Shown here: positions 9,407-43,000 of the stretch, piece after piece
How the letters are laid out: each line of letters opens with the position of its first letter
Numbering within the stretch: position 1 is the stretch's first letter
From: Eledone cirrhosa
Lineage: Eukaryota
Direction: 5' to 3'
Assembly: GCA_964016885.1 (NCBI GenBank)
Contig: OZ024743.1
Coordinates: 116,064,001-116,128,000, forward strand
Length of the DNA: 64,000 nucleotides
Made by a program: the position numbers and the translations under genes
The notes under the pieces: model-generated
What the model saw: the letters and a program-made list of their open reading frames with translations, nothing else
Databases searched by the model: none
Told to the model about the DNA's origin: nothing

Positions 9407-9675
9407 AATTAAGTAATAATATTTGCTTACGCCGTATTTGACTAAATATAATTAGTCTGTTAGTTGGGATTTAGTACATAGGACATGAACCCACATCTTT
9501 GATATGGGGTGGCGTGTAATGGTAACACATTGGCCTGGCAAGCTGAAGATGTGGGTTCGTGTCCCATGTACGTCAATACTCATCATCTTTTCCATTCAGA
9601 GTGTGTTTTTAAATCCCAACAAAGCGACTAATTCTATTTAGTCAAATACGGCGTAAACGCATGTTACTACCTAAT
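9407..9675 (+). mobile_element. Fold-back element containing a tRNA(Ala, GGC)-like head
   Basis: 9503-9575 has D-arm GTGT/ACAC, anticodon arm TTGGC-CTGGCAA-GCTGA and T-arm GTGGG-TTCGTGT-CCCAT; acceptor stem broken; left arm is a partial reverse complement of the right. Confidence 0.6.
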
Positions 9676-15800: not shown

Positions 15801-16184
15801 CTGGACATTCCAATAAAGGTCTCCAGACGCCGGGGCATAGACGTCGGGGCATAGACGGCCACTAACCTGAAAGCTTGCCCGTCTCCGCTGGTCACTTCCA
15901 GCACAACAAACTTACCTTCTGGGTCCAAGAAGATGGCCCGTATGGCGAGATCCAAACCTCTCCGAAAAAGCACAGCAACCCCCCCCCAATCCCGGACGGC
16001 TGGGAGATGCGTACACATCGTAGCCGCCGAAGATCGGTGCGAAGGCCCGTGCTTCGGAGATTCTGGTCTCGCTGATGGCCACTACATCTATGTTTAGTGA
16101 CCTGAGGTCGTTGAGCAGGTGGCCCTGCTTCCATGACGACCCCAAGCCACGCTCATTTATGCTGCCTATTCTGAGTGAGGTCAT
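12837..16184 (-). pseudogene. Tx1-type ORF2 (APE endonuclease + RT), multiple frameshifts and deletions
   Basis: Fragments MTSLRIGSIN, VGDWNG, SYTDHK, QGCPLS, YADD and CPRC...HALVQC in different frames. Confidence 0.9.
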
Positions 16185-16218
16185 GTTGAAATGGAGTAGA
16201 AAAGATGGGAACGACCAC

Positions 16219-18166
16219 TTACCTTACTCTCGTAGAAGAAGGACTGTTTCTCCATCATTTTCACTGCTTGTGGTCTCCTCAGGAAGGATGTCCTTATAAA
16301 TCCTCCTGGAGAGTGCTTGTCAGAAGTCTCCGATGTCTTTGAGGAATTTTTGTTTTAGTGTGATGTACGTTTTCTGTGTGATGCGAGTGATTTGTATGTG
16401 TGAAGGTGGTGTGAACTTTTGGGTTGTTGTGTAGTCTTTTTCTGTGATGCTGGTGTTGTTTTGGATGTAATGTAATAATTGGTTGTTGTTCAAATTTGAT
16501 GCTGTGTAGTGTGTATCGTTTTGGTTGCTTTGTTTTGTTTGCGTTTATTGTGGGTTTGTTTCTGTTTCGCATTTTGGTGATTTTTGTGGTGTAGGTGATG
16601 GTGCTGTTGGGGTTAATGATGGTGATGGTGTTGGTGTTTGGGGTGATGGCGTTGGTGATGCTGGTGTGGATGGTGGCATGTCTTTCCTAACTTTTTTGTT
16701 TGATAGTTTATTTGTTTTGGGAGGGGGGAGGAAGAGAATTCTTTCTTTTTTGGTTTCTTTTTTTCTGTTTTCTTGAGACTGTTTCCCACTCCCCGTTGTC
16801 ACAATCTGTCTCCAGTTATGATAGGCCGGGGAGTGGAAAATCCTCCACAGGCGTTAGTTTTGGTTGTGGCATGGTGGATGGTGTAGGCGCTGGTGCTAGT
16901 TCTGGCGCGTTGGGTGGTGGTGGTGTTGGTTTTGCTACTGTTGCCGGGGTTGTTGCTGTTACAGTTGCTTCTGTTGTTGCTGCTACAGTTGTTGCTGCGA
17001 TCTCTGCTGCTGGTGGTGTTGGTGGTTGAGTCACTGAGGTGGGTAGGAGAGGTGGCTTCATCCTTTTAGCCTGAGGGCAGAAAGCCCTTAGGTGGGTTCC
17101 TTCACGACAAACGTCCCACCTAGGCCTTCTGCCCTCGAAAATTACGGTGAGGTGGCTGCCGTCAGTGAGGTCTATTACCTCTGGGATCTCCTCAATGCTT
17201 TTTTGGTCCGCTTAGATCAGGAGCTCCATCCCAGATCCGGACCAGTTCTCCTGCTTTTCTTTCGCTATTTCTATTATCTTGGTGTTGGCTTCGATGCCGG
17301 CGAGGACGGCAGCTATTAGCCAGAGATTTTCGATGGCCGGTGGAACGTGGGTTACCCTGATCTTTACGAGTCTCTGGCCTCAATAGCTTGGGATGAGTGT
17401 GAAGTCGTCACTTCTTAATGGTGCCATGGAGTGTTCTCTAGCCTCCTCTGGTGTTTCAAAGAACACATGCACGGTTCCATACTTCTGCCTACGTCTGATG
17501 TGGGTTATTCTTGCTCACACATATCCCAAAGCTTTTTGGATTTGGGACTCGGATGCCCGTTCCACTCGGCGCGATTTTACATTAATTGTTCGATAAGACA
17601 CGGTGCATAGGCGCCGATGCTCCATTTTATTAGGGGGCAAGGGGGGGCTGACCCTGTACCCATCTTTCTTTACCATTATTTTGTCTTCATCTCATTCCTC
17701 CTGATTTACCTGAAGTGCTTCGCACTGTTTTGCTACTCCGTCAAAATTCAGGGTGGTTTTCTTAATGTCATTGTTGCTGTTGTTGTTATCGTTATTTTTG
17801 TTATTATTAATTTTAGTTTCAGTTGTGGTGGTGTTGGCGTCAGTGGTGTTCGGTGTGGAAGAGTTCATTTTGGTTGAATTCATTTCGACATCACGAGCTA
17901 ATTTATTTTTTATTTTGTTTCTGTTGTCGCGGTGGTGGTGGGGGTGGTGGTTGTCGCGGTGGTGGTGGTGGCGGCTTTAACACCTGCAGTCATTGGTAAT
18001 GCCGGGAAATAAATGTCTGCCTGAGACGAATTTAAAATATTGCTACTGCTAATATTTTTTTTTTAGTGTTAGCAAACGTAGTAATATTTACAATGGTGGT
18101 GGCGTTGTGAGGTGTTAGTTTGTGAGGAAGGCTCTCAGTTGCTTGGTGCAGAGGTGAATCAGCCAT
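16219..18166 (-). pseudogene. Tx1-type ORF1, decayed, divergent paralog of the copy A ORF1
   Basis: LNFDGVAKQCEALQVNQEE aligns with ISFAGIAKNLETILITNEE of copy A; same Asn-rich and Pro/Thr-rich layout. Confidence 0.65.
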
Positions 18167-18407: not shown

Positions 18408-18694
18408 TAATAATAATAATAATAATAATAATGATTTCTTTATTAACCACAAGGGTTTACATAAAGTAGACATTAAGGACAGTGCAGGACAATGCAGGAC
18501 GGTACAAATGGGCATTTCTGCGTGTAAAAAAACAAAAACAGAGGATGTAACAAAAATAACAATGAAAATAACAATGAAAAATTCCCCAATAGGGGGGAGA
18601 CTTCAGAGGGACATTTGTGGAGAAAGCCCAGTAAAAAGCCACAATGACCCTGACCACCAAGGCAAGTGCCCTCTCCCAGTTTTCCACCTTTAGT

Positions 18695-21600
18695 TTACAG
18701 ATATATACTCAGAGTCGGCCCATTCACTCGGGCCATTCTTGCTTCTCTCACCCATCTTTCAACAAAATGCTGGGAAGAGAGCACTTCCTTCTCTACTCTG
18801 ATTTTCCTTTTCAAATGAAATTTGAAAAAGTCAATCAGAGCATCACCGAAGAGGTAAGTGCTCGTCTTCAGCCCTTTCAAACGTGTCCACCATACTATCT
18901 CTTTCGCCATGGCCACCAGACAGATAAAAACTGCCTGCCCTTCCCGGCTAAAGGAGGAGGGCGGGGCAATCCTCACGATAGACTCAGATGATAGCTGGAT
19001 CCGTCCTGAACGCGACAGCAGGTGTTCGACATAAACCCACAAGTCAGCAATTTTCGGACACTGGACGAGTGCGTGCAGGACGGTTTCGTCGCCCTGCGCG
19101 CATCTCGGACATGCCCGGCTGACGGCACCTCCATGCCTGTAGAGTTTATCCCGAACTGGCAAGGCTCCTCGGTAGCACTGCCAGGCCAGAGATTTCTGGA
19201 AGTTGTCCATAGGCCCTGGCCCGAAAGTTCTTCCGAAGAGATTGGCTAGTTGATTTTCGTCGACGCCTAGAGTTTCCCCAAGTACGTCGTCGCTCTTCCC
19301 CTCCACTAATCCTCTATAGAACGCCGAGGTGGAGTTTCCACCGATCACATTGCCCGATTGGTCGAGGGCTGTGAGCGCCTGAAGACATTCCAGTCTCCAG
19401 GCGCTCCCTCTCGGTCTTCGCTTGACCCAGGACTGCAGCTCCGTCAAGGAAACGAGCTGGGGAAAAACGCGTCTAGCAAACGGCGACCACACCTGATCAC
19501 CGTCGAGGAAGAGGTGGAGATGTCGTAGCCTGAGCGCGTGCCTGCGCATCATCAGCCACGGCATGCCCAGCCCTCCACGTAGCGGGTGTTGACAACAGAT
19601 GGACCGCCTGACCATCGGAGCACGTCCCTTCCACAAAAAGCGAAAGAGCAAACGCTCCAGCGCAGTCAGGCGAGGCTTAGGACAAGGTACGACGGTTAGG
19701 CGGTAGCAGATGACAGACGCAATGTACGCGTTAGCCACCTCCGCTCGACCTTTCAGGGATAGCTTCCTCTCCGCCCATTTCTGGGTAAGAGAAGCCACCC
19801 TGCTCGTCACCTCGTCCCAGTTTTTGTCCGTCTGGAGGTCCGGACCGAACCAGACCCCTAGCAATTTAACCGGTCCGTCCGTCCAGCGCCCGACGACGCT
19901 GTTGGACGGCATGGACCTGCCTCTCCAGGTGCCGAGCTGCAGGCCCACTGACTTTTCCTGGTTGATCATTGCTCCTGTCACCGCTTCGTATTCTCTTAGT
20001 GTAGTGCCGATCGCCTCGATGTGTTTGGCGTTCGACACCACTACGGTGACATCGTCGGCATATGCTGACACGGATCTTCCGCATCCTAGTTCGCGCGGGA
20101 CTCCCCTCAACGTCTCCAGTTTGTGCAGTAATGGCTCGAGAGTCAATACGTACAAGAGGGACGAGAGGGGACATCCTTGGCGGACCGAGCGCATGATGTT
20201 GAACGGTTCCGACAGGTGACCGTTCACTCTCACCACAGAGCAGATGTCGCTGTGCATGGCAGCGATCCAGCCTCTGAAGACGGGCCCAAAGCCAGCCGCC
20301 CTCAGGACTGCCGCTAGGTAACGATGGTCGACCCTATCGAAAGCTTTCGACTGATCTAAATTGATCAAGGACCCACCCGTGCCAGGTTCCCTAGCCACCC
20401 TCTCTACGATGTATCGCATGAGGTGGAGGTTGTCGTGGATGGATCTGTCGGGAATGGCGCATGTCTGCGCCTCTCCCACCAGACCACCAACGACAAGCGC
20501 CAACCTCTTTGCTAGCACCTTGGCCAAAATCTTAAACTCTGTGTTTAGCAGAGTTATGGGCCGGAAATTGTCTATGTTATCCCCCTTGTTCGGATCCTTT
20601 CTCAGCAGTGCCACCGCACCTCGGCTCACAGAACTGGGAATTCTCCCGTTCTGTTGCCAGTTGCAGTAGACGTCCGCCAAGAGGCCTCCGAACAAGTCTG
20701 GCATCTGTACGTAAAGTTCGTAGGGCAGACCATCCAAACCAGGCGATTTACCCCTTGTGCAGCCAGTCATTGCCTCCCGTACTTCAGCGGCTGTTATCGG
20801 CTTTTCGCAACACCTCGCCTCAGTGGCCGAGAGCCGCGGCAGTCCGTCGAGGTAGACACTAAAGTCCATCCCTCTACCCGGCCCCCCGCTGCCCCCGAAC
20901 AGCTGAGCGAAGTGTCGCTGAAAAGCTTCACACATTTGCCCGGGATCGAGTAGCATGCGCCCGTCGTGGTCCACCAAAGACCGGATCGTGGCTTTGTTGC
21001 CACGACGCGCCTCCGCCACTCGGGCCCATTGAACGGCTTTCGTCCCCTCGTGTCTGAGAGCACGCACCCTAGCTCTGACAACGCAGCCTTCGTGCTTTGC
21101 ATTGAAGAATTGGTCAAGGGCCAATTTCGCCGCAAGCACGTCGGTCGCAATGCCTTTGCTAAGCGCCTCGTCTAATTTTCTAACTAGTTCTCCCTCTGCT
21201 CTATTTTTCTCTATTGCTAAAGCCTTACTAAACCTAATCGATTCTATTCTAATCGCTCTTTTCAGAGCAAACCACCACTTGTTGTTGACGATGGCCCCCG
21301 TCAACGCCCGCTTAACTAGTTCGCTAATCCGGTCTCTGTAGGCCTTGCGCCCTGGTAAGGACGCGTTTAGCTTCCAGTAGCCGGGTCCTCGTCTATGAAG
21401 CCTATCTAAGTCAAGCACACAGGTCACGAATTTGTGGTCCGTGTAGCTGACTATCTTGAATTGTGGACAGCCTATGCTAGACCTATCTATTTCCCTACAA
21501 AATACTCTATCTAGATATGATCTGGATGACCCTATGCGGTTTGTCCAAGTCTACATTGGCACATTCGGGAAATCCAATCGGTACCTGTCAGACAGTTCAA

Positions 21601-22114
21601 AACGCCTGAGCAGGTTGGTGAGGCTCTTGCACCCTCCACCCCTATCCGCTAATCCCACACAGTCCCAGCGTGCATCTAAGATTCCGTTCCAGTCGCCCAC
21701 TAACACTAAAGAGCGGGACGTTCCAAGAAAGGTCTCCAGACGCCGGAAGAAATCAGGCCGCCCTGCTCCTGTCGGGGCATAGACGGCCACTAGCCTGAAA
21801 GCTTGCCCGTCTCCGCTGGTCACGTCCAGCACCACCAGCTTACCCTCTGGGTCCAGGAAGATGGCCCGTGTGGCGAGATCCAAACCTCTCCGAAAAAGCA
21901 CAGCAACTCCTCCACCCGATCCAGGACGGCTGGGAGATGCGTACACATCGTAGCCGCCGAAGATCGGTGCGAAGGCCCGTGCTTCGGAGATTCTGGTCTC
22001 GCTGATGGCCACTACATCTATGTTTAGTGACCTGAGGTCGTTGAGCAGGTGACCCTGCTTCCATGACGACCCCAAGCCACGCGCATTTATGCTGCCTATT
22101 CTGAGTGAGGTCAT
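18695..22114 (-). pseudogene. ORF2: APE endonuclease + reverse transcriptase + C-terminal Cys/His motif (~1139 codons, one premature stop)
   Basis: ORFs 22114-21551 and 21427-18695 are in frame, split by TGG>TAG at 21551-21553 (Trp in other copies); motifs GSINARG, GDWN, TDH, FRPITLLN, KAFDRV, QGCPLS, YADD, CPRC..HALVQC. Confidence 0.93.
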
Positions 22115-22149
22115 GTTTAAAATAGAGTGGAAAAGATGGGAAAGACCAC

Positions 22150-24246
22150 TTACCGTACTTTTGGTAGAGGAGGGATGGTTTTTACATCCCTTTTCACTTG
22201 ATCGTCTGGTGAAGGGACCGTTGAATCGTCCCTTCGGCTGGTCGTCGGCTCTTCTAAGAGAATGTCTGAGTATACTCTTCGATTGATGGTTCCTCCTAGG
22301 TCCCTGAAATCACCAACTGCGTTGGGGAATTTCGTTTTAATGTTTGTGTATTGTTTCTGTGCTATTTTTAGCAGTCTTATGTTAGTTGGCGTTTTGATTG
22401 GTGCTGGTATTATGTAGTCCTGTTGTGAAATGTCTGTGTGTTCAATTATGTAAGTCATTAGTTTCTTGTTGTGTGTATTTATTGCCGTGCATTTGTTTTT
22501 CTGGGGGTGGGGTGTGGTTCTGCTATTTTCTTGTCGTTGTTGCTGGGTGTGTGTGTTTTGTTGTTGTGTTTGCGATGTTGGTGCTTGTGGTGGTGGTGTT
22601 GAAGGTGTTGTTGGCGGTGGGGTTGTCGCCGGTGGTGATGGTGGTGCTAGTGTGGGTGGTGATGGTGTTGGTGTTGTTGCTGCTGTGGGTCTCTTTGCAG
22701 TAGACTTTACCCTTTTCTCATTTCTTTCCTCCCTTTTCAAAGGCGACGATGCGCTGCTTCTGCGTTTGTGCCTTCTTGCGACCTTTTGCCATCCCTCTCC
22801 CACCTCACACTCCATGTCTGATTCTGTGAGGTCGGGGAGGGGTACCAGCTCCACTCTTTCACTTGTTGTTGTTGGTGATGTTTGCACTGGAGTCTCTGTT
22901 GCAGCTGCATTTGGTATTGCTGTTGTTGTTGTTAATATTTCCACTGCTGCTGCTGTCTTTGATTTCCGTGGAGTGGGTATGGGTGCCACGGACCTATCGT
23001 TCCTGGTTGCCGCTTGTCCTGTTGCTGGTAGCCGTGGAGCCGGATTCGGAAGGAGGGGGGTTTTCTCCTTTCTCAGGGTCTTCTCGTTGCAGAAGGCCCT
23101 GAGGTGAGTCTTCGATCCACAGCGAAAGCATTTCGGGCGTTTGCCCTCAACACTTATGGGCAGTTGAGTGCCGTTATCGAAGTCTATCACATCCGGGATA
23201 GCTTCGATGCACTCCTGGTTGGTTTGGATTAGCATCTCAATGGAGGAGCCGACCCAATCTTCTCTTACTTTTTTCTGTACTTGCAGTACAGTTGTTTTGT
23301 CCTCGATTCCGACGAGGACAGACGCGGCCAGCCAAGAAGGGGTCATTCCGGGGGGGACGTGGGTCAGTTTGACCCTCACAATTTTTTGCCCACAGTAGGA
23401 GGGCACCAACACCATTTCCTCGCTCCTTAGGGTCACTACTGATTGGGCCTTTGCCTCCTGGGGTGTGGCAAAAAGTACGTCTACGGTGGCATATTTTTTG
23501 CCTCGGGTGATGTGCGTTTTCCGCTGCCACACAGACCCCAAGGCTTTTTGTATTTGGGCCTCTGTGGCTCTTTCCACCCTACGGGATTTTGTACTTACTG
23601 TACGGTACGTGACCGTACAGTGCTCTTGGGTTTCGAAAAAATTTTTCGCTGCCTTGCAGATTGCTCGGTGTCCGTTCTTTGTCACCATCTTCTTCGCTTC
23701 CTCTAATTCCTCATTTGTTATGAGGATTGTTTCCAAATTTTTCGCAATACCTGCAAATGAGATTGGTTTTTCTCTGCTGTTGTTGTTGTCGTCAGAGCTG
23801 CTGGTACTTTTGTTGTTGCTGCAGGTACTACGACTACTGCCTCCGCCGCTGTTGCTGTGGTTGTTGTTGGTGTTGCTGCTGCTAATGCTGTTGTTGTTTA
23901 TGCTGCTGGTGATGCTGTTGCGGCTGCTACTGTTGTTTTCATTGTCACTGTTGCTGTTGTTATTACGGCTGCTACTGCTATTATTCCTGACGTCAGACGA
24001 ATGAACTGGGTTTTCGTATTTCCCGCACACCTGTTTCGTCGCTGTCGTCGTCGTCGTGGAGAAACCTTGCACGCTTTGCACGAGACTTTTCTTTTCTTTC
24101 GTCACTTGCGAAAGAGAAGGGAGGGAGAGAGACACATTTAAAGAAGGGAGGGAGAGAGACAATCTTCTCTCTGCTGTAGTGATGATTGAGGAAGAAGAAG
24201 ACGGAATGAGTGGGAGTGACGTATGAAATTTCTTTTTGGTAGCCAT
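22150..24246 (-). CDS. ORF1 nucleic-acid-binding protein with gag-like zinc knuckle
   Basis: Open frame from ATG 24246; CFRCGSKTHLRAFC = CX2CX4HX4C; Ser/Asn-rich N-terminal and Pro/Thr-rich C-terminal regions. Confidence 0.85.
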   Translation of the reverse strand: MATKKKFHTSLPLIPSSSSSIITTAERRLSLSLPSLNVSLSLPSLSQVTKEKKSLVQSVQGFSTTTTTATKQVCGKYENPVHSSDVRNNSSSSRNNNSNSDNENNSSSRNSITSSINNNSISSSNTNNNHSNSGGGSSRSTCSNNKSTSSSDDNNNSREKPISFAGIAKNLETILITNEELEEAKKMVTKNGHRAICKAAKNFFETQEHCTVTYRTVSTKSRRVERATEAQIQKALGSVWQRKTHITRGKKYATVDVLFATPQEAKAQSVVTLRSEEMVLVPSYCGQKIVRVKLTHVPPGMTPSWLAASVLVGIEDKTTVLQVQKKVREDWVGSSIEMLIQTNQECIEAIPDVIDFDNGTQLPISVEGKRPKCFRCGSKTHLRAFCNEKTLRKEKTPLLPNPAPRLPATGQAATRNDRSVAPIPTPRKSKTAAAVEILTTTTAIPNAAATETPVQTSPTTTSERVELVPLPDLTESDMECEVGEGWQKVARRHKRRSSASSPLKREERNEKRVKSTAKRPTAATTPTPSPPTLAPPSPPATTPPPTTPSTPPPQAPTSQTQQQNTHTQQQRQENSRTTPHPQKNKCTAINTHNKKLMTYIIEHTDISQQDYIIPAPIKTPTNIRLLKIAQKQYTNIKTKFPNAVGDFRDLGGTINRRVYSDILLEEPTTSRRDDSTVPSPDDQVKRDVKTIPPLPKVR

Positions 24247-24483
24247 GTTTTTTTGTTTAAAATGAAATTTTGGGTACAAAACCCCAATAACTGGTTATTT
24301 AACCCCGAAGGGCCAAATAACGGACAGAAAGACCCCTCTCACGAGGAGGAGGGTGTCTTTATCAACAATTTGGTTCAAGTTTTAAACAATTTACAATTGT
24401 TTTAACGGTTAAAAATTACTATACCTTACAGAGCCGAGCCTCCGTCAACCATGGCATTCAATAATAATAATAATAATAATAAT

Positions 24484-26525
24484 GATGTTACCAACTATAG
24501 ACCTATCACATGTCTGCCCGTAATGTGGAAACTGTTGACGAGCATTGTGTCTGAGGAAATCTACCATCACCTCCACACAAACAACTTGTTGCCGGACGAA
24601 CAGAAAGGATGCCGAAAGAAGTCACGTGGTACAAAGGACCAGTTGCTTATTGATAAGATGGTAATGGGGAATTGCAGGAGGAGACACACTGATCTTGCCA
24701 TGGGATGGATAGACTACAGAAAGGCATTTGACATGGTGCCTCATTCCTGGATCACCAAAAGCCTGGAGATCTTCAGGGTGGCAGATAACATCAGACAGTT
24801 GCTGGGCAGGAGTATGGGGTCCTGGGAGACAGAGTTGACATCAACTGGAGTATCCTTGGGAAGCGTGAAGATCAAGAGAGGTATCTTCCAGGGAGATAGC
24901 CTGTCCCCTCTGTTGTTTGTCCTTGCCCTGATGCCCTTGACCATTATGCTGCGAAAAGTGAGAGCAGGATACAAGTTGGGAAGGGGAGAGCTTACCATCC
25001 ATAACCTCCTCTTCATGGACGATCTTAAGCTCTTCGGGAAAAGTGAGAAGGAGTTGGATGTGCTTGTTGAAACTGTCCGTATTTTCAGCAGTGATATATG
25101 TATGCAGTTTGGTATTGGTAAATGTGGAGTCATTGTGATGAGGAGGGGTAGGTTGAGCAGAAGTAACGGGATCCAGATACCAACAGGTGAGATGATAAAG
25201 GAAATTGACTCTGAGGAAGGATACAAGTATTTGGGCGTTCTGGAGGCTGATGGCATAAAGAACAAAAAAATGAAGGAATTGTTAAGAACTGAATACATTC
25301 GGAGAGTAAGGAGCGTATTGAAGTCACATCTGAACAGCAGAAATGCCATAAGCGCAGTAAATTCCCGAGCTGTGTCTATTATTAGGTACAGTGCGGGAAT
25401 TCTGAGATGGAATGTTGCTGAACAAAAAGAAATGGATAGGAAGACTAGGAAGCTATTGACTATCTACAACATGTTCCACAAGAGGAGTGATGTCGATAGA
25501 CTCTACCTAAGGAGATCTGAGGGTGGAAGAGGTCTTATCAGCATAGAGGACTGTGTTCAGATGGAGAAAAACAACCTATACAAATACGTGACCTATAGTA
25601 AGGAGCCAATGCTCAGAGCTGTACTGAAGGAGGGGACAGTAGGCCAGGGGATACCCAAGGAGGAAATAACATCAAGGAGGAAGAGCAGCCTTAAGGGAAA
25701 ATCCCTTCATAGTACCTTCTTTGAGAAAACTGAATTTAGAGATCCACAGACATGGAACTGGTTGAGAAGAGGAGACCTCAAAAAGGCTACAGAAGGAATG
25801 CTAATGGCTGCGCAGGAGCAGGCCCTCAAAACGAAGTGGTTGAAGCACCATATCTACAAGGAGGAGGCTAGCCCACTGTGCAGGATCTGTGGAGAGAGAG
25901 AGGAGACTGTGGCTCACATTGTGTCCGAGTGTAAACACCTAGCCCAGACCCACTATAAGGGCTGGAGACACGATGTGATGGGCAGGGTGATCCACTGGCA
26001 CCTGTGCAAAGTAAACAATCTACCACATTCTGAGAAATGGTATGAGCATAGGTCAGAGGCGGTGATAGAGAACAGTCAGGTGAAGGTGCTGTGGGATTTT
26101 AGGATACAGACGGACAAAAAACTGGAACACAATAGACCTGGCCTGGTGGTTGTGGACAAAGAAAAAAGATCGTGCCTGATTGTGGATGTGGCCTGCCCGT
26201 TCGACACGAGAGTGCAAGAGAAGGAGAGGGAGAAAATTAACCGATACCAGGACCTAAAGTGGGAGGTGAAAAGGATTTGGGACTGCCATGAAGTCAAAGT
26301 GATCCCGATTGTCATAGGCGCACTGGGGACTATCTCCAAAGGTTTCCAGGGATGGTTAAAGAAAATCGGCCCCTTCACGCTTTTTGGAACGCTTCAAAAG
26401 GCATGCTTGCTTGGAACGGCAAGAACCCTCCGATACGTCCTGAATATCTGAGGCTGCAGGTAGTGGCTTGATATTCAATCCAACGGACTTTCCAGTTAAC
26501 CAACATCAATGACTGAGATTCAAGG
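24484..26525 (+). mobile_element. R4/Dong-type RLE non-LTR retrotransposon, family D1, 5'-truncated
   Basis: Open RT ([19 protein letters not shown]), CRIC..HIVSEC knuckle, RHD and RLE domain; this copy has RPG instead of RPD; stop at 26451. Confidence 0.92.
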
Positions 26526-26537
26526 AATAACAATAAC

Positions 26538-26572
<35 letters not shown>

Positions 26573-26577
26573 TAATA

Positions 26578-28988
26578 AAAGAGGCAACGACTTGATCCCT
26601 GGGGCGGAGCAAACTAAAACATTCTGGAGAGGAATATGGGAGCAGGATGTTAGACATAATGTCCAGGCAGGGTGGATTGAGACAGTACAGAGGGAGATCG
26701 GTGAGCAGGCACAGCAACAAACTGATTTGAGTATCACAGTTGAAACTCTTAAGGGGCAGGCCAAAAAACTAACCAACTGGAAATCACCAGGCCCAGATGG
26801 TGTGCAGGGGTATTGGATTAAACATTTAACATCCCTCCACACGAAGCTGACGGCCATGTTCAATGACTCCTTGGTGTCGGGTGAGGTGCCAGAGTGGTTG
26901 ACAAAAGGTACCACAGTTCTGATAATGAAAGACCGAATCAAGGGTAATGATGTTACCAACTATAGACCTATCACATGTCTGTCCGTAATGTGGAAACTGT
27001 TGACGAGCATTGTGTCTGAGGAAATCTACCATCACCTCCACACAAACAACTTGTTACCGGACGAACAGAAAGGATGCCGAAAGAAGTCACGTGGTACAAA
27101 GGACCAGTTACTTATTGATAAGATGGTAATGAGGAATTGCAGGAGGAGACACACTGATCTTGCCATGGGATGGATAGACTACAGAAAGGCATTTGACATG
27201 GTGCCTCATTCTTGGATCACCAAAAGCCTGGAGATCTTCAGAGTGGCAGACAACATCAGACAGTTGCTGGGCAGGAGTATGGGGTCCTGGGAGACAGAGT
27301 TGACATCAACTGGAGTATCCTTGGGAAGCGTGAAGATCAAGAGAGGTATCTTCCAGGGAGATAGCCTGTCCCCTCTGTTGTTTGTCCTTGCCCTGATGCC
27401 CTTGACCATTATGCTGCGAAAAGTGAGAGCAGGATACAAGTTGGGAAGGGGAGAGCTTACCATCAATAACCTCCTCTTCATGGACGATCTTAAGCTCTTC
27501 GGGAAAAGTGAGAAGGAGTTGGATGTGCTTGTTGACACTGTCCGTATTTTCAGCAATGATATATGTATGCAGTTTGGTATTGGTAAATGTGGAGTCATTG
27601 TGATGAGGAGGGGTATGTTGAGCAGAAGTAACGGGATCCAGATACCAACAGGTGAAATGATAAAGAAATTGACTCTGAGGAAGGATAGAAGTATTTGGGC
27701 GTTCTGGAGGCTGATGGCATAAAGAACAAAAAAATGAAGGAATTGTTAAGAACTGAATACATTCGGAGAGTAAGGAGCGTATTGAAGTCACATCTGAACA
27801 GCAGAAATGCCATAAGCGCAGTAAATTCCCGAGCTGTGTCTATTATTAGGTACAGTGCGGGAATTCTGAGATGGAATGTTGCTGAACAAAAAGAAATGGA
27901 TAGGAAGACTAGGAAGCTATTGACTATCTACAACATGTTCCACAAGAGGAGTGATGTCGATAGACTCTACCTAAGGAGATCTGAGGGTGGAAGAGGTCTT
28001 ATCAGCATAGAGGACTGTGTTCAGATGGAGAAAAACAACCTATACAAATATGTGACCTATAGTAAGGAGCCAATGCTCAGAACTGAACTGAAGGAGGGGA
28101 CAGTAGGCCAGGGGATGTCCAAGGAGGAAATAACATCAAGGAGGAAGAGCAGCCTTAAGGGAAAATCCCTTCATAGTACCTTCTTTGAGAAAACTGAATT
28201 TAGAGATCCACAGACATGGAACTGGTTGAGAAGAGGAGACCTCAAAAAGGCTACAGAAGGAATGCTAATGGCTGCGCAGGAGCAGGCCCTCAAAACGAAG
28301 TGGTTGAAGCACCATATTTACAAGGAGGAGGCTAGCCCACTGTGCAGGATCTGTGGAGAGAGAGAGGAGACTGTGGCTCACATTGTGTCCGAGTGTAAAC
28401 ACCTAGCCCAGACCCACTATAAGAGCTGGAGACACGATGTGATGGGCAGGGTGATCCACTGGCACCTGTGCAAAGTAAACAATTTACCACATTCTGAGAA
28501 ATGGTATGAGCATAGGCCAGAGGCGCTGATGGAGAACAATCAGGTGAAGGTGCTGTGGGATTTTAGGATACAGACGGACAAAAAACTGGAACACAATAGA
28601 CCTGACCTGGTGGTTGTGGACAAAGAAAAAAGATCGTGTCTGATTGTGGATGTGGCCTGCCCGTTCGACACGAGAGTGCAAGAGAAGGAGAGGGAGAAAA
28701 TTAACCGATACCAGGACCTAAAGTGGGAGGTGAAAAGGATTTGGAACTGCCATGAAGTCAAAGTGATCCCGATTGTCATAGGCGCACTGGGGACTATCTC
28801 CAAAAGTTTCCAGGGATGGTTAAAGAAAATCGGCCCCTTCACGCTTTTTGGAACGCTTCTAAAGGCATGCTTGCTTGGAACAGCAAGAACCCTCCGATAC
28901 GTCCTGAATATCTGAGGCTGCAGGTAGTGACTTGATATTCAATCCAACGGACTTTCCAGTTAACCAACATCAATGACTGAGATTCAAG

Positions 28989-28989
<1 letters not shown>
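26578..28989 (+). mobile_element. R4/Dong-type family D1, 5'-truncated, one frameshift near 27662
   Basis: ORFs 26592-27722 and 27695-28915: KSPGPDG, RT motifs, [21 protein letters not shown]. Confidence 0.92.
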
Positions 28990-29061
<72 letters not shown>

Positions 29062-32000
29062 TCTCAAAAACATTATCATCACAAACAAACTAAACATTAC
29101 TGACTTAAATCATCTCTATTATGCATCGGCTAAAGTCACCACTCACTTATGTGGAGTGAAGATGAAAAAACAAAGGAATTCCCACAAGAAATCTACTTGG
29201 CAAGATAACATCAATCGCCGAATAAACCTTCTCCGATCTGACATAGAAATTTTAACAAACTATAAAGTAGGTGAACATGTTAAACAAACTAAACTTAGAA
29301 AATTGAAAAAAAAGTATAGTATAAGATCAACATGTGACATAGACATGCTGATAGAAACAATCAAGCAAAAAGTGTCGGCCAAAGCTGCTCGTATAAGGCG
29401 CTTTGAAAAACGATCTAGATTCTATGAGGACAATAATATGTTCAAAAATAACCAAAGAAACTTCTACAGAAAAATTGGTAAGTCAACAATAACTGCTAAA
29501 TCAATACCACCCAAGGAGGAAGTGCAAGAATTCTGGGAAAAGATCTGGGCCGAAGAAAAAGTTCATAACATACATGCCCCATGGATAGACAGACAAATGA
29601 AAGAAACAGCTCACCTTGAAGAACAAACATGGGAAAATATAACAGTTGAACAGCTGCACTTGGCTCTAAGAAAAACCAGCTAATGGAAATCCCCAGGAAA
29701 AGACAAAATACAAAACTTTTGGATAAATGCCTTCACAGAGTCTCATGAGCTGTTAGCCCAACTTTACAATGAAATAGTTAAGGAGCCAGAAAAGATACCA
29801 TCATGGCTAGTTAACGGCATTACATTCCTGCTACCGAAGAATGATGAGACAAACAATCCCAAAAATTACAGACCGATAACCTGCTTGACCACAATGTATA
29901 AAATTTTAACATCAGTCCTAACTGAATACACATATGACCACCTGATAACAAATGACCTATTTCCCATTGAGCAGAAAGGGTGTAAACGAGGCTCATATGG
30001 CTGTAAGGATCAGCTTCTGGTTAACAAAATGATACTGGAAGATTGTCATAATAGACACAAAAATCTATCGATTGCTTGGATAGATTATAAAAAAGCATTT
30101 GATAGTTTGCCACACAGTTGGATTGAAAAATGTTTAGAGATTTTCAAAATATCCGCCGTTATCAGGAGGTTTTTGTCATTCAGTATGAGGACATGGAGAA
30201 CGACACTCCTTTTGAATAGTGAAACAAAATCACTGGAAGCTGGAGAAGTTAACATTAATTGTGGAATTTTTCAGGGTGACTCTTTATCACCGCTTTTATT
30301 CTGCATCGCACTTATACCATTAAGTAAAATGCTCAATGAAACAAAACATGGATATAGAGTCTATGACAAAACCATTAATCACCTGTTCTACATGGATGAC
30401 CTGAAACTATTTGCAAAAAATGATGAACAATTGCAAGGGCTATTATCCACTGTGAAGCAGTTCAGTGATGACATTAAAATGGTGTTTGGACTGGATAAAT
30501 GCGCCAAAGCAACGTTCACCAGAGGAAAGCTGCTGAAGTGTTCAGACATTAATCTTGATCGGGGGAACGTGATAAGAGAGCTTGATCAAGAACAAACTTA
30601 CAAATATCTAGGTGTTTGTGAAGGAGACGGAATCAAGCACTCGACAATGAGGGAAATGATAAGGAAGGAATGTTACCGCAGAGTCAGAGCAATCTTAAGA
30701 ACGGAATTGAATGCAAGGAATAGGATCGATGCCATAAACACGCTTGCCATACCAGTAGTAACCTACAGTTACAATGTCATCAACTGGTCAAGCACAGAGA
30801 TCCGTAGGCTCGATACAAACATCCGAAAATTCTTAACCATGCACAGAATGCATCACCCTAAGGCAGACATAGATAGAATATATCTCCCTAGGAAAGAAGG
30901 AGGACGTGGGTTAATCCAGTTAGACATTGCGTTGAAAACTGCAACAATTGGATTATCCACATATCTAAGGGAATCACATGATTGGATGATCAAACTCGTT
31001 TTGAAACACGAAAGCACCAAAAGATCATATTCCATTACAAAAGATGCACAAAGATACAGTAATGGACTACAAATTTCAGAAGTCCCATTTACTGCTGAAA
31101 TGGAAAACACAGAAAAAGCAAAGCAGGTAAAAGTAACTGCAAAGAAAGAACTGCTACAGAAACTGGCTAAGAAATGGCAAGAAAAGCCTCTGTATGGAAA
31201 ATACCCAGAGCGAGCTAACAATCCTGATGTTGACAAAGCTTTAACCCATCAGTGGTTGGCATCCTCTGGACTGAAATAGGAGACTGAAGGACTGATTATA
31301 TCCGCACAAGATCAGTGTCTGCCAACAAAAAATTACCAAGCCAACATAATAAAAAATGGGTGCAGCCCATTATGCCGTGTATGCAAAAAACAACCAGAGA
31401 CCATTGACCATATAATTTCAATGTGCAGTCCTATAGCTCCAACCGAATACCTAAACAGGCATGACAGAGCTGCACAATACATACATTGGATAATGTGTAA
31501 GCATTTTGACCTGCCCCATCAAAAGAATTGGTGGGAGCATCAACCACCTCCCATACTTGAAAAAGATCACATCTCAATCTTGTGGAACTTTAGCATCCAA
31601 ACAGACCGAAAAATAGATGCAAATAGACCTGATATAATATTGAAGGACTTTCAAATGAGGGTATGCCTGCTAATTGATATGTCTGTTCCAATAGACAAGA
31701 ATGTATCTATAAAAACATTTGAAAAATTGAGCAAGTATAAGGACCTGGAGATAGAAATTGTAAAAATGTGGAAATTGAGAACTAAAACAATACCAGTGGT
31801 TGTAGGCGCTCTGGGAATGATACCTAAGGGGTCTAAGGACTACTTATCGCAAATCCCAGGAAACCCGCGTATAGGAGAAATACAAAAGATAGTACTAATG
31901 GGAACTGCCCATATACTAAGGAAGATCCTTTCAATATAAGTACATCACAAGTCTAAACACTAAGGATGCATGTGTGAATATGTGTGTTCTTTCTTGAACA

Positions 32001-32079
32001 TGGCGGACCTTGTTGTCTCTTGAGGTCACTGGTTGTGACTTGGTGATAACTCGTATAAACATAAAGCAAGATAAATGCA
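29062..32079 (+). mobile_element. R4/Dong-type family D2, 5'-truncated, two in-frame stops
   Basis: RT (QGDSLSP, YMDD) and RLE (RHD, RPDII, DMSVP, EKLSKY); stops at ~29681 and ~31277; distinct 3'UTR. Confidence 0.92.
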
Positions 32080-32108
32080 AATAATAATAATAATAATAAT
32101 AATAATAA

Positions 32109-32563
32109 ACGATCAGGTGAAGGTGCTCTGGGATTTTAGGATACAGACGGACAAGAAACTGGAACACAATAGACCTGACCTTGTGGTTTTGGTCAAGGAA
32201 AAAAATCGTGCCTGATTGTGGATGTGGCCTGCCCATTCGAAACGAGAGTGCAGAGAAGAAAGAGAGGGAGAAAATTAACCGATACCAGGACTTAAAGTGG
32301 GAGGTAAAAAGGATTTGGAACTGCCATGAAGTCTAAGTGGTCCCGATTGTCATAGGCGCACTAAGTACTGTCTCAAAAAGTTTCCAGGGATGGTTAAAGA
32401 AAATTGGCCTCTTCACGCTTTTTGGAATGCTTCAAAAGGCATGCTTGCTGGGAACAGCAAGAACCCTCCGATACCTCTTGAATATCTGGGGCTGCAGGTA
32501 GTGGCTTGATATTCATTTCAACAAACTTTCCAGTTAACTAACATCAATTACTGAGACTCAAAG
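32109..32563 (+). mobile_element. Family D1 3' fragment
   Basis: Matches the D1 RLE-coding end and 3'UTR; (AAT)n on both sides. Confidence 0.9.
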
Positions 32564-32597
32564 AACAATAATAATAATAATAATAATAATAATAATT

Positions 32598-33606
32598 TCA
32601 GAAGTCTCATTTACTGCTGAAATGGAAAACACAGAAAAAGCAAAGCAGGTAAAAGTAACTGCAAAGAAAGAACTGCTACAGAAACTGGCTAAGAAATGGC
32701 AAGAAAAGCCTCTGTATGGAAAATACCCAGAGCGAGCTAACAATCCTGATGTTGACAAAATTTTAACCCATCAGTGGTTGGCATCCTCTAGACTGAAATC
32801 GGAGACTGAAGGACTGATTATATCGGCACAAGATCAGTGTCTGCCAACAAAAAATTACCAAGCCAACATAATAAAAAATGGGTGCAGCCCATTATGCCGT
32901 GTATGCAAAAAACAACCAGAGACCATTGACCATATAATTTCAATGTGCAGTCCTATAGCTCCAACCGAATACTTAAACAGGCATGACAGAGCTGCACAAT
33001 ACATACATTGGATAATGTGTAAGCATTTTGACCTGCCCCATCAAAAGAATTGGTGGGAGCATCAACCACCTCCCATACTTGAAAAAGATCACATCTCAAT
33101 GTTGTGGAACTTTACCATCCAAACAGACCGAAAAATAGATGCAAACAGACCTGATATAATATTGAAAGACTTTCAAAAGAGGGTATGCCTGCTAATTGAT
33201 ATGTCTGTTCCAATAGACAAGAATGTATCTATAAAAACATTTGAAAAATTGAGCAAGTATAAGGACCTGGAGATAGAAATTGTAAAAATGTGGAAATTGA
33301 GAACTAAAACAATACCAGTGGTTGTAGGCGCTCTGGGAATGATACCTAAGGGGTCTAATGATTACATATCCCAAATCCCAGGAAACCCGCGTATAGGAGA
33401 AATACAAAAGATAGTATTAATCGGAACTGCCCATATACTAAGGAAGATTCTGTCAATATAAGTACATCACAAGTCTAAACACTGAAGATGCATGTGTGAA
33501 TATGTATGTTCTTTCTTGAACATGGCGGACCTTGTTGTCTCTTGAGGTCACTGGTTGTGACTTGGTGATAACTCGTATGAACATAAAGCAAGATAAATGC
33601 AACTGT
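32598..33606 (+). mobile_element. Family D2 3' fragment (zinc knuckle + RLE)
   Basis: ORF 32622-33461 nearly identical to the 3' part of 29062-32079. Confidence 0.9.
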
Positions 33607-33627
33607 AATAATAATAATAATAATAAT

Positions 33628-35127
33628 ATCGGGAAGAGTGAGAAGGAGTTGGATGTGCTTGTTGACACTGTCCGTATTTTCAGCAATGATATATGTATGC
33701 AATTTGGTATTAGTAAGTGTGGAGTCATTGTGATGAGGAGGGGTAAGTTGAGCAGAAGTAACGGAATCCAGATACCAACAGGTGAGATGATAAAAGAAAT
33801 CGACTCTGAAGAAGGAAACAAGTATTTGGGCGTTCTGGAGGTTGATGACATCAAGAACAAAAAAATGAAGGAATTGATAAGAACTGAATACCTTCGGAGA
33901 GTAAGGAGCGTATTAAAGTCACATATGAACAGTAGGAATGCCATAAGTGCAGTAAATTCCCGAGCTGTGTCTATTATTAGGTACAGTGCGGGAATTCTGA
34001 GATGGAATGTTGCTGAACAAAAAGAAATGGATAGGAAGACAGGGAGCTATTGACTATCTACGATATGTTCCACAAGAGGAGTGATGTCGATAGACTCTAC
34101 TTAAGGAGATCTGAGGGTGGAAGAGGTCTTATCAGCATAGAGGACTGATTTCAGATGGACAAAAACAACCTACATAAATACGTGACTGATAGTAAGGAGC
34201 CAATGCTCAGAGCTGTACTGAAGGAGGGGACAATAGGCCAGGGGATGTCCAAGGAGGAAATAACATCAAGGAGAAGGAGAAAGAGCAGCCTTCAGGAAAA
34301 ATCCCTTCATAATACCTTCTTTGAGAAAACTGAATTTAGAGATCCACAGACATGGAACTGGTTGAAAAGAGGAGACCTTAAAAAGGCTACAGAAGGAATG
34401 TTAATGGCTGCGCAGGTGCAGGCCCTCAAAACGAAGTGGTTGAAACACCACATTTTCAAGGAGGAGGCTAGGCCACTGTGCAGGATCTGTGGAGAGAGAG
34501 AGGAGCCTGTGGCTCACATTGCATCCGAGTGTAAACACCTAGCCCAGACTCACTATAAGGGCTGGAGACATGATGTGATGGGCAGGGTGATCCACTGGCA
34601 CCTATGCAAATTAAACAATTTACCACATTCTGAGAGGTGGTATGAGCATAAGTCAGAGGCGGTGATAGAAAAGGATCAGGTGAAGGTGGTGTGGGATTTT
34701 AGGATACAGACGGACAAGAAACTGGAACACAATAGACCTGACCTGGTGGTTTTGGACAAAGAAAAAAGATCGTGCCTGATTGTGGATGTGGCCTGCCCAT
34801 TCGACACGAGAGTGCAAGAGAAGGAGAGGGAGAAAATTAATCGATAGAAGGAGTTAAAGTGGGAGGTAAAAAGGATTTGGAACTGCCATGAAGTCAAAGT
34901 GATCCCGATTGTCATAGGCGCACTAGGGACTATCTCAAAAAGTTTCCTGGGATGGTTAAAGAAAATTGGTCGCTTCACGCTTTTTGGAACGCTTCAAAAG
35001 GCATGCTTGCTGGGAACAGCAAGAACCCTCCGATACATCCTGAATATATGAGGCTGCAGGTAGTGGCTTCATATTCATCTCAACAAACTTTCCAGTTAAC
35101 TAACATCAATGACTGAGACTCAAAGAG
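33628..35127 (+). mobile_element. Family D1 5'-truncated decayed copy
   Basis: Matches D1 from GKSEKELD to the 3'UTR, with stops and a frameshift. Confidence 0.9.
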
Positions 35128-40100: not shown

Positions 40101-43000
40101 ACCTGTCAGACAGTTCAAAACGCCTGAGCAGGTTGGTGAGGCTCTTGCACCCTCCACCCCTATCCGCTAATCCCACACAGTCCCAGCGTGCATCTAAGAT
40201 CCCGTTCCAGTCGCCCACTAAATCTAAAGAGCGGGACGTTCCGAGAAAGGTTTCCAGACGCCGGAAGAAATCAGGCCGCCCTGCTCCTGTCGGGGCATAG
40301 ACGGCCACTAGCCTGAAAGCTTGCCCGTCTCCGCTGGTCACGTCCAGCACCACCAACTTACCCTCTGGGTCCAGGAAGATGGCCTGTATTAAGAGATCCA
40401 AACCTCTCCGAAAAAGCACAGCAACTCCTCCCCCCGATCCAGGACGGCAGGAAGATGCGTACACATCGTAGCCGCCGAAGATCGGTGCGAAGGCCCGTGC
40501 TTCGGAGATTCTGATCTCGCTGATGGCCACTACATCTATGTTTAGTGACCTGAGGTCGTTGAGCAGGTGGCCCTGCTTCCATGACGACCCCAAGCCACGC
40601 GCATTTATGCTGCCTATTCTGAGTGAGGTCATGTTTAAAATAGAGTGGAAAAGATGGGAAAGACCACTTACCGTACTTTTCGTAGAGGAGGGATGGTTTT
40701 TACATCCCTTTTCACTTGATCGTCTGGTGAAGGGACCGTTGAATCGTCCCTTCGGCTGGTCATCAGCACTTCTATGAGTATGTCCGAATATACTCTTCGG
40801 TTGATAGTTCCTCCTAGGTCTCTGAAATCACCAACTGCGTTGGGGAATTTCGTTTTAATGTTTGTGTATTGTTTCTGTGCTATTTTTAGTAGTCTTATGT
40901 TAGTTGGCGTTTTGATTGGTGCTGGTATTATGTAGTCGTGTTGTGAAATGTCTGTGTGTTCAATTATGTAAGTCATTAGTTTCTTGTGTGTATTTATTGC
41001 CGTGCACTTGTTTTTCTGGGGGTGGGGTGTGGTTCTGCTATTTTCTTGTCGTCTTTGCTGGGTGTGTGTGTTTTGTTGTTGTGTTTGCGATGTTGGTGCT
41101 TGTGGTGGTGGTGTTGAAGGTTTTGTTGTTGGCGGTGGGGTTGTCGCCAGTGATGGTGGTGCTAGTGTGGGTGGTGATGGTGTTGGTGGTGTTGCTGCTG
41201 TGAGTCTCTTTGCAGTAGACTTTACCCTTTTTTCATTTCTTTCCTCCCTTTTCAAAGTTAACGATGCGCTGCTTCTGCGTTTGTGCCTTCTTACGACCTT
41301 TTGCCATCCCTCTCCCACCTCACACTCCATGTCTGATTATGTGAGGTCGGGGAGGGGTACCAGCTCCACTCTTTCACTTGTTGTTGTTGGTGATGTTTGC
41401 ACTGGAGTCTCTGTTGCAGCAGCATTTGGTATTGCTGTTGTTGTTGTTGTTAATACTTCCACTGCTGCTGCTGTTTTTGATTTCCGTGGCGTGGGTATGA
41501 GAGCCACGGACCTATCGTTCATGGTTGCCGCTTGTCCTGTTGCTGGTAGCCGTGGAGCCGGTTTCGGAAGGAGGGGGTTTTTCTCCCTTCTCAGGACCTT
41601 CTCGTTGCAGAAGGCTCTGAGGTGAGTCTTCGATCCACAGCGAAAGCATTTCGGGCGTTTGCCCTCAACACTTATGGGCAGTTGAGTGCCGTTATCGAAG
41701 TCTATCACATCCGGGATAGCTTCGATGCACTCCTGGTTGGTTTGGATTAACATCTCAATGGAGGTGCCGACCCAATATTCTCTTACTTTTTTCTGTACTT
41801 GCAGTACAGTTGTTTTGTCCTCGATTCCGACGAGGACAGACGCGGCCAGCCAAGAAGGAGCCATCCCGGGGGGGGGGGGGGCGTGGGTCAGTTTGACCCT
41901 CACAATTTTTTGCCCGCAGTAGGAGGGCACCAACACCATTTCCTAGCTCCTTAGGGTCACTATGGATTGAGCCTTTGCCTCCCGGGGTGTGGCAAAAAGT
42001 AAATCTACGGTGGCATATTTCTTGCCTCCGGTGATGTGTGTTTTCCGCTGCCACACAGACCCCACGGCTTTTTGTATTTGAGCCTCTGTGGCTCTTTCCA
42101 CCCTACGGGATTTTGTACTTACTGTACGGTACGTGACCGTACAGTGCTGTTGGATTTCGAAAAACTTTTCCGCTGCCTTGCAGATTGCTCGGTGTCCAGT
42201 TTTTGTCACCATCTTCTTCGCTTCCTCTAATTCCTCATTTGTTATGAGGATTGTTTCCAGGTTCTTCGCGATACCTGCAAACGAGATTGGTTTTTCTTTG
42301 CTGCTGTTGTTGTTGTTGTTGTCGTCAGAGCTGCTGTTACTTTTGTTGTTGCTGCAGGTACTACGACTACTGCCGCCGCCGCTGTTGCTGTGGTTGTTGT
42401 TGTTGTTGCTGCTGCTAATGCTGTTGTTGTTTCTGCTGCTGCTGATGCTGTTGCGGCTGCTACTGTTGTTTTCATTGTCACTGTTGCTGTTGTTATTACG
42501 GCTGCTACTACTATTATTCCTGACGTCAGACGAATGAAATGGGTTTTCGTATTTCCCGCACAACTGTTTCGTCGTCGTTGTCGTCGTCGTCGTGGAGAAA
42601 TCTTGCACGCTTTGCACGAGACTTTTCTTTTCTGTCGTCGCTTGCGAAAGAGAAGGGAGGGAAATAGACACATTTAAAGAAGGGAGGGAGAGAGACAATC
42701 TTCTCTCTGCTGTAGTGACAATTGAGGAAGAAGGAGACGGAATGAGTGGGAGTGACCTATGAAAATTCTTTTTCGTACCCATGTTGTTTTTTTTTTGTTT
42801 AAAATAAATATTGGGCACAAAACCCCAATAAGCAGTTATTTAACCCCGAAGGGCCAAATAACGGGCAGAAAGACCCCTATCACGAGGAGAAGGGTGTTTT
42901 TGTCTACAAGTTGGTAAAAGTTTTAAACAATTTACAATTGTTATAGCGTTCAAAATTTACAATACCTTACAGAGCTGAGCCTCCGTCAACCATAGCATTC
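37114..43000 (-). mobile_element. Tx1/L1-type LINE, full-length decayed copy C (same family as A)
   Basis: ORF1 42782-40668 and ORF2 40632-37361 with stops, frameshifts and small deletions; 5' terminus matches copy A. Confidence 0.92.

Follow-up and report, generated by a model that had tools for sequence, protein, structure and literature searches.

A 5′ splice site (donor) at the end of ORF1 is, on comparison of the sequences, conserved and constrained in 12 of 12 examined families of Tx1-like LINEs in the genome of Eledone cirrhosa, and this donor is apparently used by the spliceosome. The reading that we hold to be probable joins several propositions, namely that the donor is conserved, that the spacer following it is always retained, that ORF2 would be translated from its own AUG, and that three lineages would have been born by splicing at the donor. 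The analysis starts from element A and the related copies B and C in a stretch of 64,000 nt (the window) and extends to the 3.0 Gb of the genome searched. The features of the window on which the argument relies are all on the minus strand:

18433..24459, minus strand: element A, a full-length Tx1-like LINE (ends approximate)
22150..24243, minus strand: ORF1 of element A, 697 aa, derived from family P down to 22197
18695..22114, minus strand: ORF2 of element A (APE endonuclease, RT, zf-RVT), with its ATG at 22114
22196..22197, minus strand: joint 1, from the P ORF1 end at the donor (22197) to B sequence after the CAG (22196)
22154..22196, minus strand: B-derived last stretch of ORF1, 43 nt, a micro-exon between B's CAG and B's donor
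22148..22156, minus strand: conserved 5′ splice site over the ORF1 stop, with the cut point between 22154 and 22153
22101..22153, minus strand: candidate intron, made up of a pyrimidine-rich spacer and the first 14 nt of ORF2; every copy found retains it
22478..22483, minus strand: AATAAA in the A-rich ORF1, 330 nt before the donor, expected from base composition
16171..16266, minus strand: copy B, with a CAG at 16266-16264 (the acceptor in the A lineage), the donor at 16222 and a 52-nt spacer to 16171
40619..40715, minus strand: copy C (A lineage), with the joint between 40715 and 40714, the donor at 40671 and the spacer to 40619

Element A is about 6 kb long and is inserted into (ATT)n, head-to-tail directly before copy B. 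At least 40 genomic copies are 100% identical to it over a 351-nt junction. Its ORF1 is laid out as an RRM/CCHC-like middle followed by a low-complexity tail, with one CX2CX4HX4C motif, no Pfam match above cut-off and atlas neighbours of the CCHC/ZCCHC3-RBD type at 0.91-0.93. ORF2, which in this copy is interrupted by an in-frame stop at 21551-21553, matches PF03372, PF00078 and PF13966 (N-terminal APE endonuclease, RT and C-terminal zinc finger, respectively). Among solved structures, the endonuclease comes closest to L1 endonucleases (E 7e-05); its nearest named relatives come from Argonauta hians and Octopus sinensis, which points to an octopod host. By its domains and its target, element A is a Tx1-like LINE, and it displays the target preference and the 3′ AATAAA before the repeat tail that are traits of the Tx1/L1 clade; insertion targets are (ATT)n for families A, B and F, and (ATCT)n for D and E. 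The ORF2 sequences of A and B are 96-97% identical, while their ORF1s can be aligned only as patches of 62-73%. Other elements lie nearby in the window. Several single-ORF RT elements of another clade, which we take from their motifs to be Dong/R4-like, occupy positions 24406-35000 on the plus strand, in the same (AAT)n tracts and opposite to the Tx1-like copies; elements of this kind also follow many copies of family P. An Rfam tRNA match of 37 bits at 9514-9567 on the plus strand is probably the head of a SINE.

The sequence-only reading of the window had proposed that a short GT-AG intron fuses ORF1 to ORF2 in frame. Its description of the junction is largely borne out. The spacers run from 22153 to 22101 in A and from 40671 to 40619 in C (53 nt each) and from 16222 to 16171 in B (52 nt); all read GTAAGT...CAG, and the TAA stop of ORF1 sits within the donor motif. 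Removal of the spacer joins CG to A in the ORF2 frame in both A and C. The equivalent AG+A join described for B is found in typical B-family copies elsewhere (in most of these, ORF1 ends at the donor with A's phase), and it fails in window copy B itself, where a 1-nt deletion just before the donor makes the copy's own ORF1 frame stop ahead of it. The unspliced offsets do differ and are out of frame, with 35 nt from stop to ATG in A and 34 nt in the B family, and the candidate acceptor indeed comes without a strong branch point. The donor of element A is the sole site in the 6-kb element that scores at least 8/9 against the donor consensus, and the candidate acceptor is a Leu-Arg codon pair at the start of ORF2; judged by its letters, the donor exceeds chance and the acceptor does not. 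When the spacer at 22153-22101 is compared with a U2-type intron, it has a 5′ splice site predicted to pair with U1, and it lacks a conserved branch point, a YAG acceptor in conserved phase, and intron-less retrocopies.

Because splicing would remove neither the 3′ tail nor the RT coding sequence, a spliced RNA should leave genomic copies, as spliced human L1 RNA does. Intron-less copies, which would have supported the fusion, were sought across the whole genome with a pattern in which a gap of 0-8 nt represents the spliced form and a gap of 48-58 nt the retained spacer. This returned 0 copies of the former against 4,572 of the latter, placing the 95% upper bound on the frequency of spliced copies at about 0.07%; for full-length human L1, the accessible text of PMC5860796 gives about 2% (131/6,609). 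Exon ends without the donor next to them were also checked singly. The spacer was kept in 12/12 and 43/44 A/B exon ends, the sole exception among the 44 being a deletion at an ACG (non-AG) microhomology, and likewise in 10/10 for G, 13/13 for F and 24/25 for D. The remaining D copy (L389) has its exon end joined into ORF2 near TAG-GT, one G short of a clean splice, and may be read as a deletion or as a spliced copy. Among 41 such E1 exon ends, 16 keep the spacer, 2 are unrelated and 23 are chimeric. Among the families, these searches properly covered A/B, D, E1, F and G, and the gap-free ones are blind to second exons starting with GT (e.g., a CAG at +122). A distal acceptor in the 3′ UTR (CAG at 18520-18518), whose use would drop all of ORF2, was rejected, since it yielded 0 retrocopies and the CAG exists in A/B only. 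Two sets of observations are not counted as evidence: no 53-nt skip appeared among the 15 of 96 joints displayed, in contigs of four of six runs of unrecorded kind, and one contig each from X2, X5 and X6, also of unrecorded run kind, crosses the donor unspliced. Weak searches for fused relatives gave no fused ORF1 among long proteins and no ORF1 fusion among four endonuclease matches; within the best 150 of 1,759 representatives, the three long N-termini inspected proved to be two degenerate read-throughs and a tick gene model. The Ixodes persulcatus protein model P0153 holds ORF1-like and endonuclease parts in one chain, as an artefact or a true fusion. The literature searched gave no figure for the smallest octopus intron.

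Other ORF2 starts were searched genome-wide, with 2,737 and 4,290 matches. Inspection of 178 junctions placed 176 of them in nine families; with J, P and the chimera K, identified afterwards, the total is 12. Among the three properties expected to be conserved in a functional intron, only the donor was found to be so, in all 12 families, which share descent, so that its conservation counts as one history, in an alignment anchored on the motif; acceptor and phase vary among sister families, which is the second of the two outcomes that the sequence-only reading had itself named as counting against it. The donor reads (A/C/G)G-GTRRGT (hyphen at the cut) in every family and lies over the ORF1 stop or 5 nt before it; TAA, TGA and TAG are all found as stops, in two phases. 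By the strict pattern it is intact in 28/28 copies of B, 13/14 of D, 11/17 of E1, 32/33 of E2, 12/13 of F, 19/20 of G, 4/4 of H, 5/5 of I and 23/25 of P; the A loci were partly picked as mutants. Positions -1, +1, +2, +5 and +6 are invariant in 9/9 family representatives, against none of the 35 other positions from -15 to +25, and only 14 of 66 fourfold ORF2 sites are invariant, A differing from D, E, G, H and I at about half of them. The predicted U1 duplex at the donor ranks 2/314 among the GT sites of A, 1/279 in E2 and 1/301 in D. Two E1 copies (L078 and L086) have a G-to-A change at donor +5 in common, and L152, an unclassified copy, is without the donor. The donor as a general trait of Tx1/L1 elements was rejected: 80 metagenome loci included 23 with a readable ORF1 stop, and only 2 of these 23 distant elements score at least 7/9. 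L205 and L222 are distant metagenome L1/Tx1 elements with a donor-like motif at the ORF1 stop.

The other parts of the junction behave differently. The donor is in phase 2 in A, B, D, E1, G, I and J and in phase 1 in E2, F, H and P, a distribution that requires at least three phase changes on the ORF2 tree. Of the nine families, only A, B and H keep the frame at the first YAG past 45 nt; in D, E1, E2, F, G and I this YAG is out of frame, and a further, in-frame CAG is present in E1 at 30-37 nt. The AG that matches the candidate acceptor is preceded by A in E1, E2, G, H and I, and is absent in D. With the donor conserved and both phase and acceptor variable, constraint acts on the donor and not on the acceptor. 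The ORF2 ATG is preceded by AC in 9/9 families and has A at -3 in 8/9, a context that fits invertebrate translation starts. Some families have other arrangements around the junction. Young E2 copies (L133, L091-L120) have open frames of 1,150 aa in which ORF1 and ORF2 are in frame, with one TGA and 33 nt between them, and the two ORFs are also in frame in family I and in one G subfamily. The last 60 nt of ORF1 in D, E, F, G, H and I contain an in-frame Met 13-18 codons before the stop, after a C/A-rich tract, which could serve as a short upstream frame for ORF2.

A hairpin is predicted over the donor in 15/15 representatives, pairing about half to four fifths of it. It exceeds shuffled spacers in F and H and does no better than these in 11/15 representatives at p<0.1, so that, being significant only in F and H, it was rejected as a conserved feature. 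In L161, L157, L169 and L464, the F hairpin over the donor is a perfect 9 bp and the H hairpin 7 bp, and P has a near-identical arm. Three 5′-truncated copies (L112, L173 and L428) start 4, 8 and about 20 nt before the donor, and the RT may pause at the fold. A poly(A) hexamer lies within 500 nt upstream of the donor in 7/8 representatives, about the rate set by composition, and young E2 has none there. ORF1 is 36-43% A, and the poly(A) hexamers that it contains, including an ATTAAA at 22341 in element A, are no more than composition predicts.

Three chimeric lineages consist of one family's ORF1 up to the exact donor and of another family's sequence directly after a CAG, the overlap between the two being AG only. 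In 3/3 joints (A, K and K2), the 5′ part ends at a parental GT donor and the 3′ part starts after a parental AG, which is the signature of the spliced integrated retrotransposed elements (SpIREs) of human L1. SpIREs have both sites in one element and are dead ends; here there are two parent families, and the products were amplified. Joint 1 is that of family A, which, in the comparison of ORF1 ends, carries two terminal units in tandem. Its 5′ parent, family P, was found by a search from locus L148; at least 40 copies of it match at 95-100% over 261 nt. Over about 2 kb, 12/12 P copies have a 5′ part that is 84-91% identical to A, two of these copies being back-recombinants with A. The 5′ part of P ends in an intact donor exactly where A becomes B-type. 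Conversely, the ORF2 of P is only 80-85% identical to that of A in 24/25 copies, whereas A and B are 96% identical from the joint onward. In B, the switched-in stretch follows a CAG in 27/30 copies, and early A copies are B-type throughout this stretch. A is the derived form, because the end of P is homologous to the end of the more distant F. The end motif common to A, P and F has 2,802 matches in the genome, and 25 of the first 30 are A-type, which places A among the largest young families in the genome.

The two other joints involve E1. Joint 2 accounts for 20 of the 41 E1 matches and links the E1 end at the donor to the last 23 nt of the G ORF1 after G's CAG; in the 8 of these 20 that were compared, the downstream part is 93-96% identical to G, against about 80% for E1. 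Joint 3, found in 3 of the 41, has the E1 end followed by the final 99 nt of the E1-G chimera, again after a CAG. This CAG has the highest pyrimidine share of 34 AGs, and the B acceptor used at joint 1 is weak (pyrimidine share 0.5, rank 16/33). Joints 1 and 2 were first met unaimed; a donor-aimed search supplied joint 3 as well as the figure given for joint 2. Random joints with at least 2 nt of microhomology would fall at the donor in 0.2-1.8% of cases and would also follow a YAG in 0.03-0.3%. Among 290 distinct junction upstreams, a set enriched by donor-aimed searches, no multi-copy out-of-register chimera was found away from the donor.

Both parents of family A also occur as neighbours. 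P followed by B head-to-tail is found in 3/20 P loci, with 5,335-6,195 nt from donor to acceptor, and D-G and E1-D tandems are also present. One of these loci, L500 (G000:C2:46713300-46723299), has the P-then-B order, and its B copy alone carries the extra G of the A lineage, with 5/5 A-lineage states against at most 2 in 52 others. L500 was rejected as the proven source of family A and stands as a candidate only, since its P neighbour has just 5/54 A-lineage states and the 3′ tree does not resolve the matter. Loci L479, L487 and L482 are in-register A/P recombinants, with an A-type 5′ part and a P-type end, or a P ORF1 and an A/B-type ORF2.

Several explanations compete for these observations. 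The fusion intron proposed at the outset, a 52-53 nt intron spliced to give an ORF1-ORF2 protein that supplies the ORF2 activity while only unspliced RNA is copied, would account for the strong donor and for the frame in A, B and C; it would place Val where ORF2 has Leu4, and some AG within 41-62 nt joins in frame in most families. We nevertheless judge it very improbable, given the 0/4,572 spliced copies from an RNA that would retain its tail and its RT, the phase changing at least three times, a first YAG in frame in only 3/9 families, young D copies that have no in-frame AG within 125 nt, the conserved ATG context of ORF2, and the lack of long fused relatives in admittedly weak searches. 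The claim that a spliced fusion expresses ORF2 is thus abandoned. It would also be conceivable that the chimeras arose by template switching of the RT, or by DNA repair, at 2-nt microhomologies, the motif being kept as a fold or a translation signal. In-register recombinants do exist, every family has the predicted hairpin, which in F and H outdoes shuffled spacers, and two 5′ truncations (L112 and L173) end 4-8 nt before the motif, where the RT may pause. Yet 3/3 joints fall at an exact exon boundary after a CAG with only AG as homology, 17 nt of identity lying 23 nt away in E1/G went unused, the motif varies in the way that the donor consensus does (A/G at +3 and +4), and the hairpin is no better than shuffles in most representatives, which makes this origin unlikely.

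Two further proposals accept splicing and differ in what the donor does from day to day. The donor could routinely produce a spliced, early-ending ORF1-only RNA in the style of EVD/copia, which would be without the 3′ tail and hence leave no genomic copies. This would explain at once the conserved donor, the free phase and the absence of spliced copies, it has a precedent in Ty1/Copia (in the accessible part of PMC5580714), and it is compatible with splice-born chimeras. It is doubtful, since neither a conserved acceptor nor a conserved poly(A) hexamer follows the donor, ORF1 has its own stop and so does not need splicing, and the 3′ UTR CAG is confined to A/B and unused. Alternatively, the donor may have no day-to-day use and persist only because new families born by splicing inherit the donor of the second parent. 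Every chimera has an intact donor, and family A is one of the largest young families; against this, there are three births only, the long branches between families would erode an unused site, and most families are without such a joint in the 290-junction scan. We regard this as quite improbable.

Altogether, we favor the reading in which the donor is conserved, the spacer retained and the three chimeras born by splicing. Since the spacer is retained in every copy found, ORF2 is likely translated from its own AUG on unspliced bicistronic RNA, which is usual in two-ORF LINEs, according to the accessible text of PMC3894237. Rare read-through RNAs would span head-to-tail elements, and splicing would connect the donor of the first element with a cryptic CAG close to where ORF1 of the following element ends. 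The chosen AG lies 23-99 nt before the second donor, and U1 bound there would help to define the short exon, so that the AG would be selected by exon definition. The spliced read-through product, presumably made by cis rather than trans splicing, would then retrotranspose in cis. It would consist of a whole ORF1 with a short tail, an intact donor, the spacer, ORF2 and the 3′ tail, and because it inherits working parts, it could found a family. It seems rather likely that the donor lets the spliceosome graft the promoter and ORF1 of one element onto the ORF2 and tail of the next, and that microsatellite targeting combined with splicing offers a recurrent route to successful families, the large young family A being one of these. 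The weakest step is the day-to-day role of the donor. By analogy with EVD, where U1 at a comparable site blocks early termination (PMC5580714, as far as its accessible part goes), the leading though uncertain candidate is U1 binding without splicing, which may shield the full-length RNA from early polyadenylation, and the predicted hairpin over the donor may keep splicing rare.

These elements resemble known systems in part. The Tx1-clade Kibi and Koshi, as described in the available portion of PMC4494074, likewise have two ORFs, an APE-RT-zinc finger ORF2, microsatellite insertion and tandem clusters; the elements described here differ by their (ATT)n or (ATCT)n targets and by the donor over the ORF1 stop. 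Human L1 SpIREs, from what is accessible of PMC5860796, share the retrotransposition of spliced LINE RNA, the fossil junctions and a conserved, rarely used donor, yet they are spliced within the 5′ UTR/ORF1 of one element, whereas here splicing would join two elements and found families of tens to thousands of copies. Gene-exon/L1 chimeras of the RAP1GDS1/L1PA2 type (10.1101/2025.02.02.635956, accessible part) also have a donor-ended 5′ part, an acceptor-started 3′ part and a retrotransposable product. There, a host gene is the 5′ partner and lends its promoter; here, the partner is another LINE family, which lends its 5′ UTR and all of ORF1. EVD and other Ty1/Copia elements (PMC5580714, in the part available) likewise end their structural ORF in a conserved U1 site, at which bound U1 prevents early termination of the full-length RNA. 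They are, in contrast, LTR elements: they have a single GAG-POL frame and regularly splice a GAG RNA to a conserved acceptor, neither of which was seen here. L1-Tx1 families are listed for Octopus vulgaris in the accessible text of PMC13282606, and the octopus papers, in their available portions, mention L1-Tx1 families and RTE transcripts but neither the donor nor spliced chimeras. Within open-licence papers and preprints, we found no description of a fertile spliced LINE RNA or of a conserved U1 site in a non-LTR element.

LINE lineages swap their 5′ UTR and ORF1 repeatedly, which is usually ascribed to template switching, and the joints are seldom preserved. The presence of parents, product and tandem substrate in one genome, with exact donor-CAG joints, makes the mechanism of such module swaps testable. 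It suggests that spliced LINE RNA is not necessarily a dead end, and that a conserved cis element of a non-LTR retrotransposon may be a U1 site.
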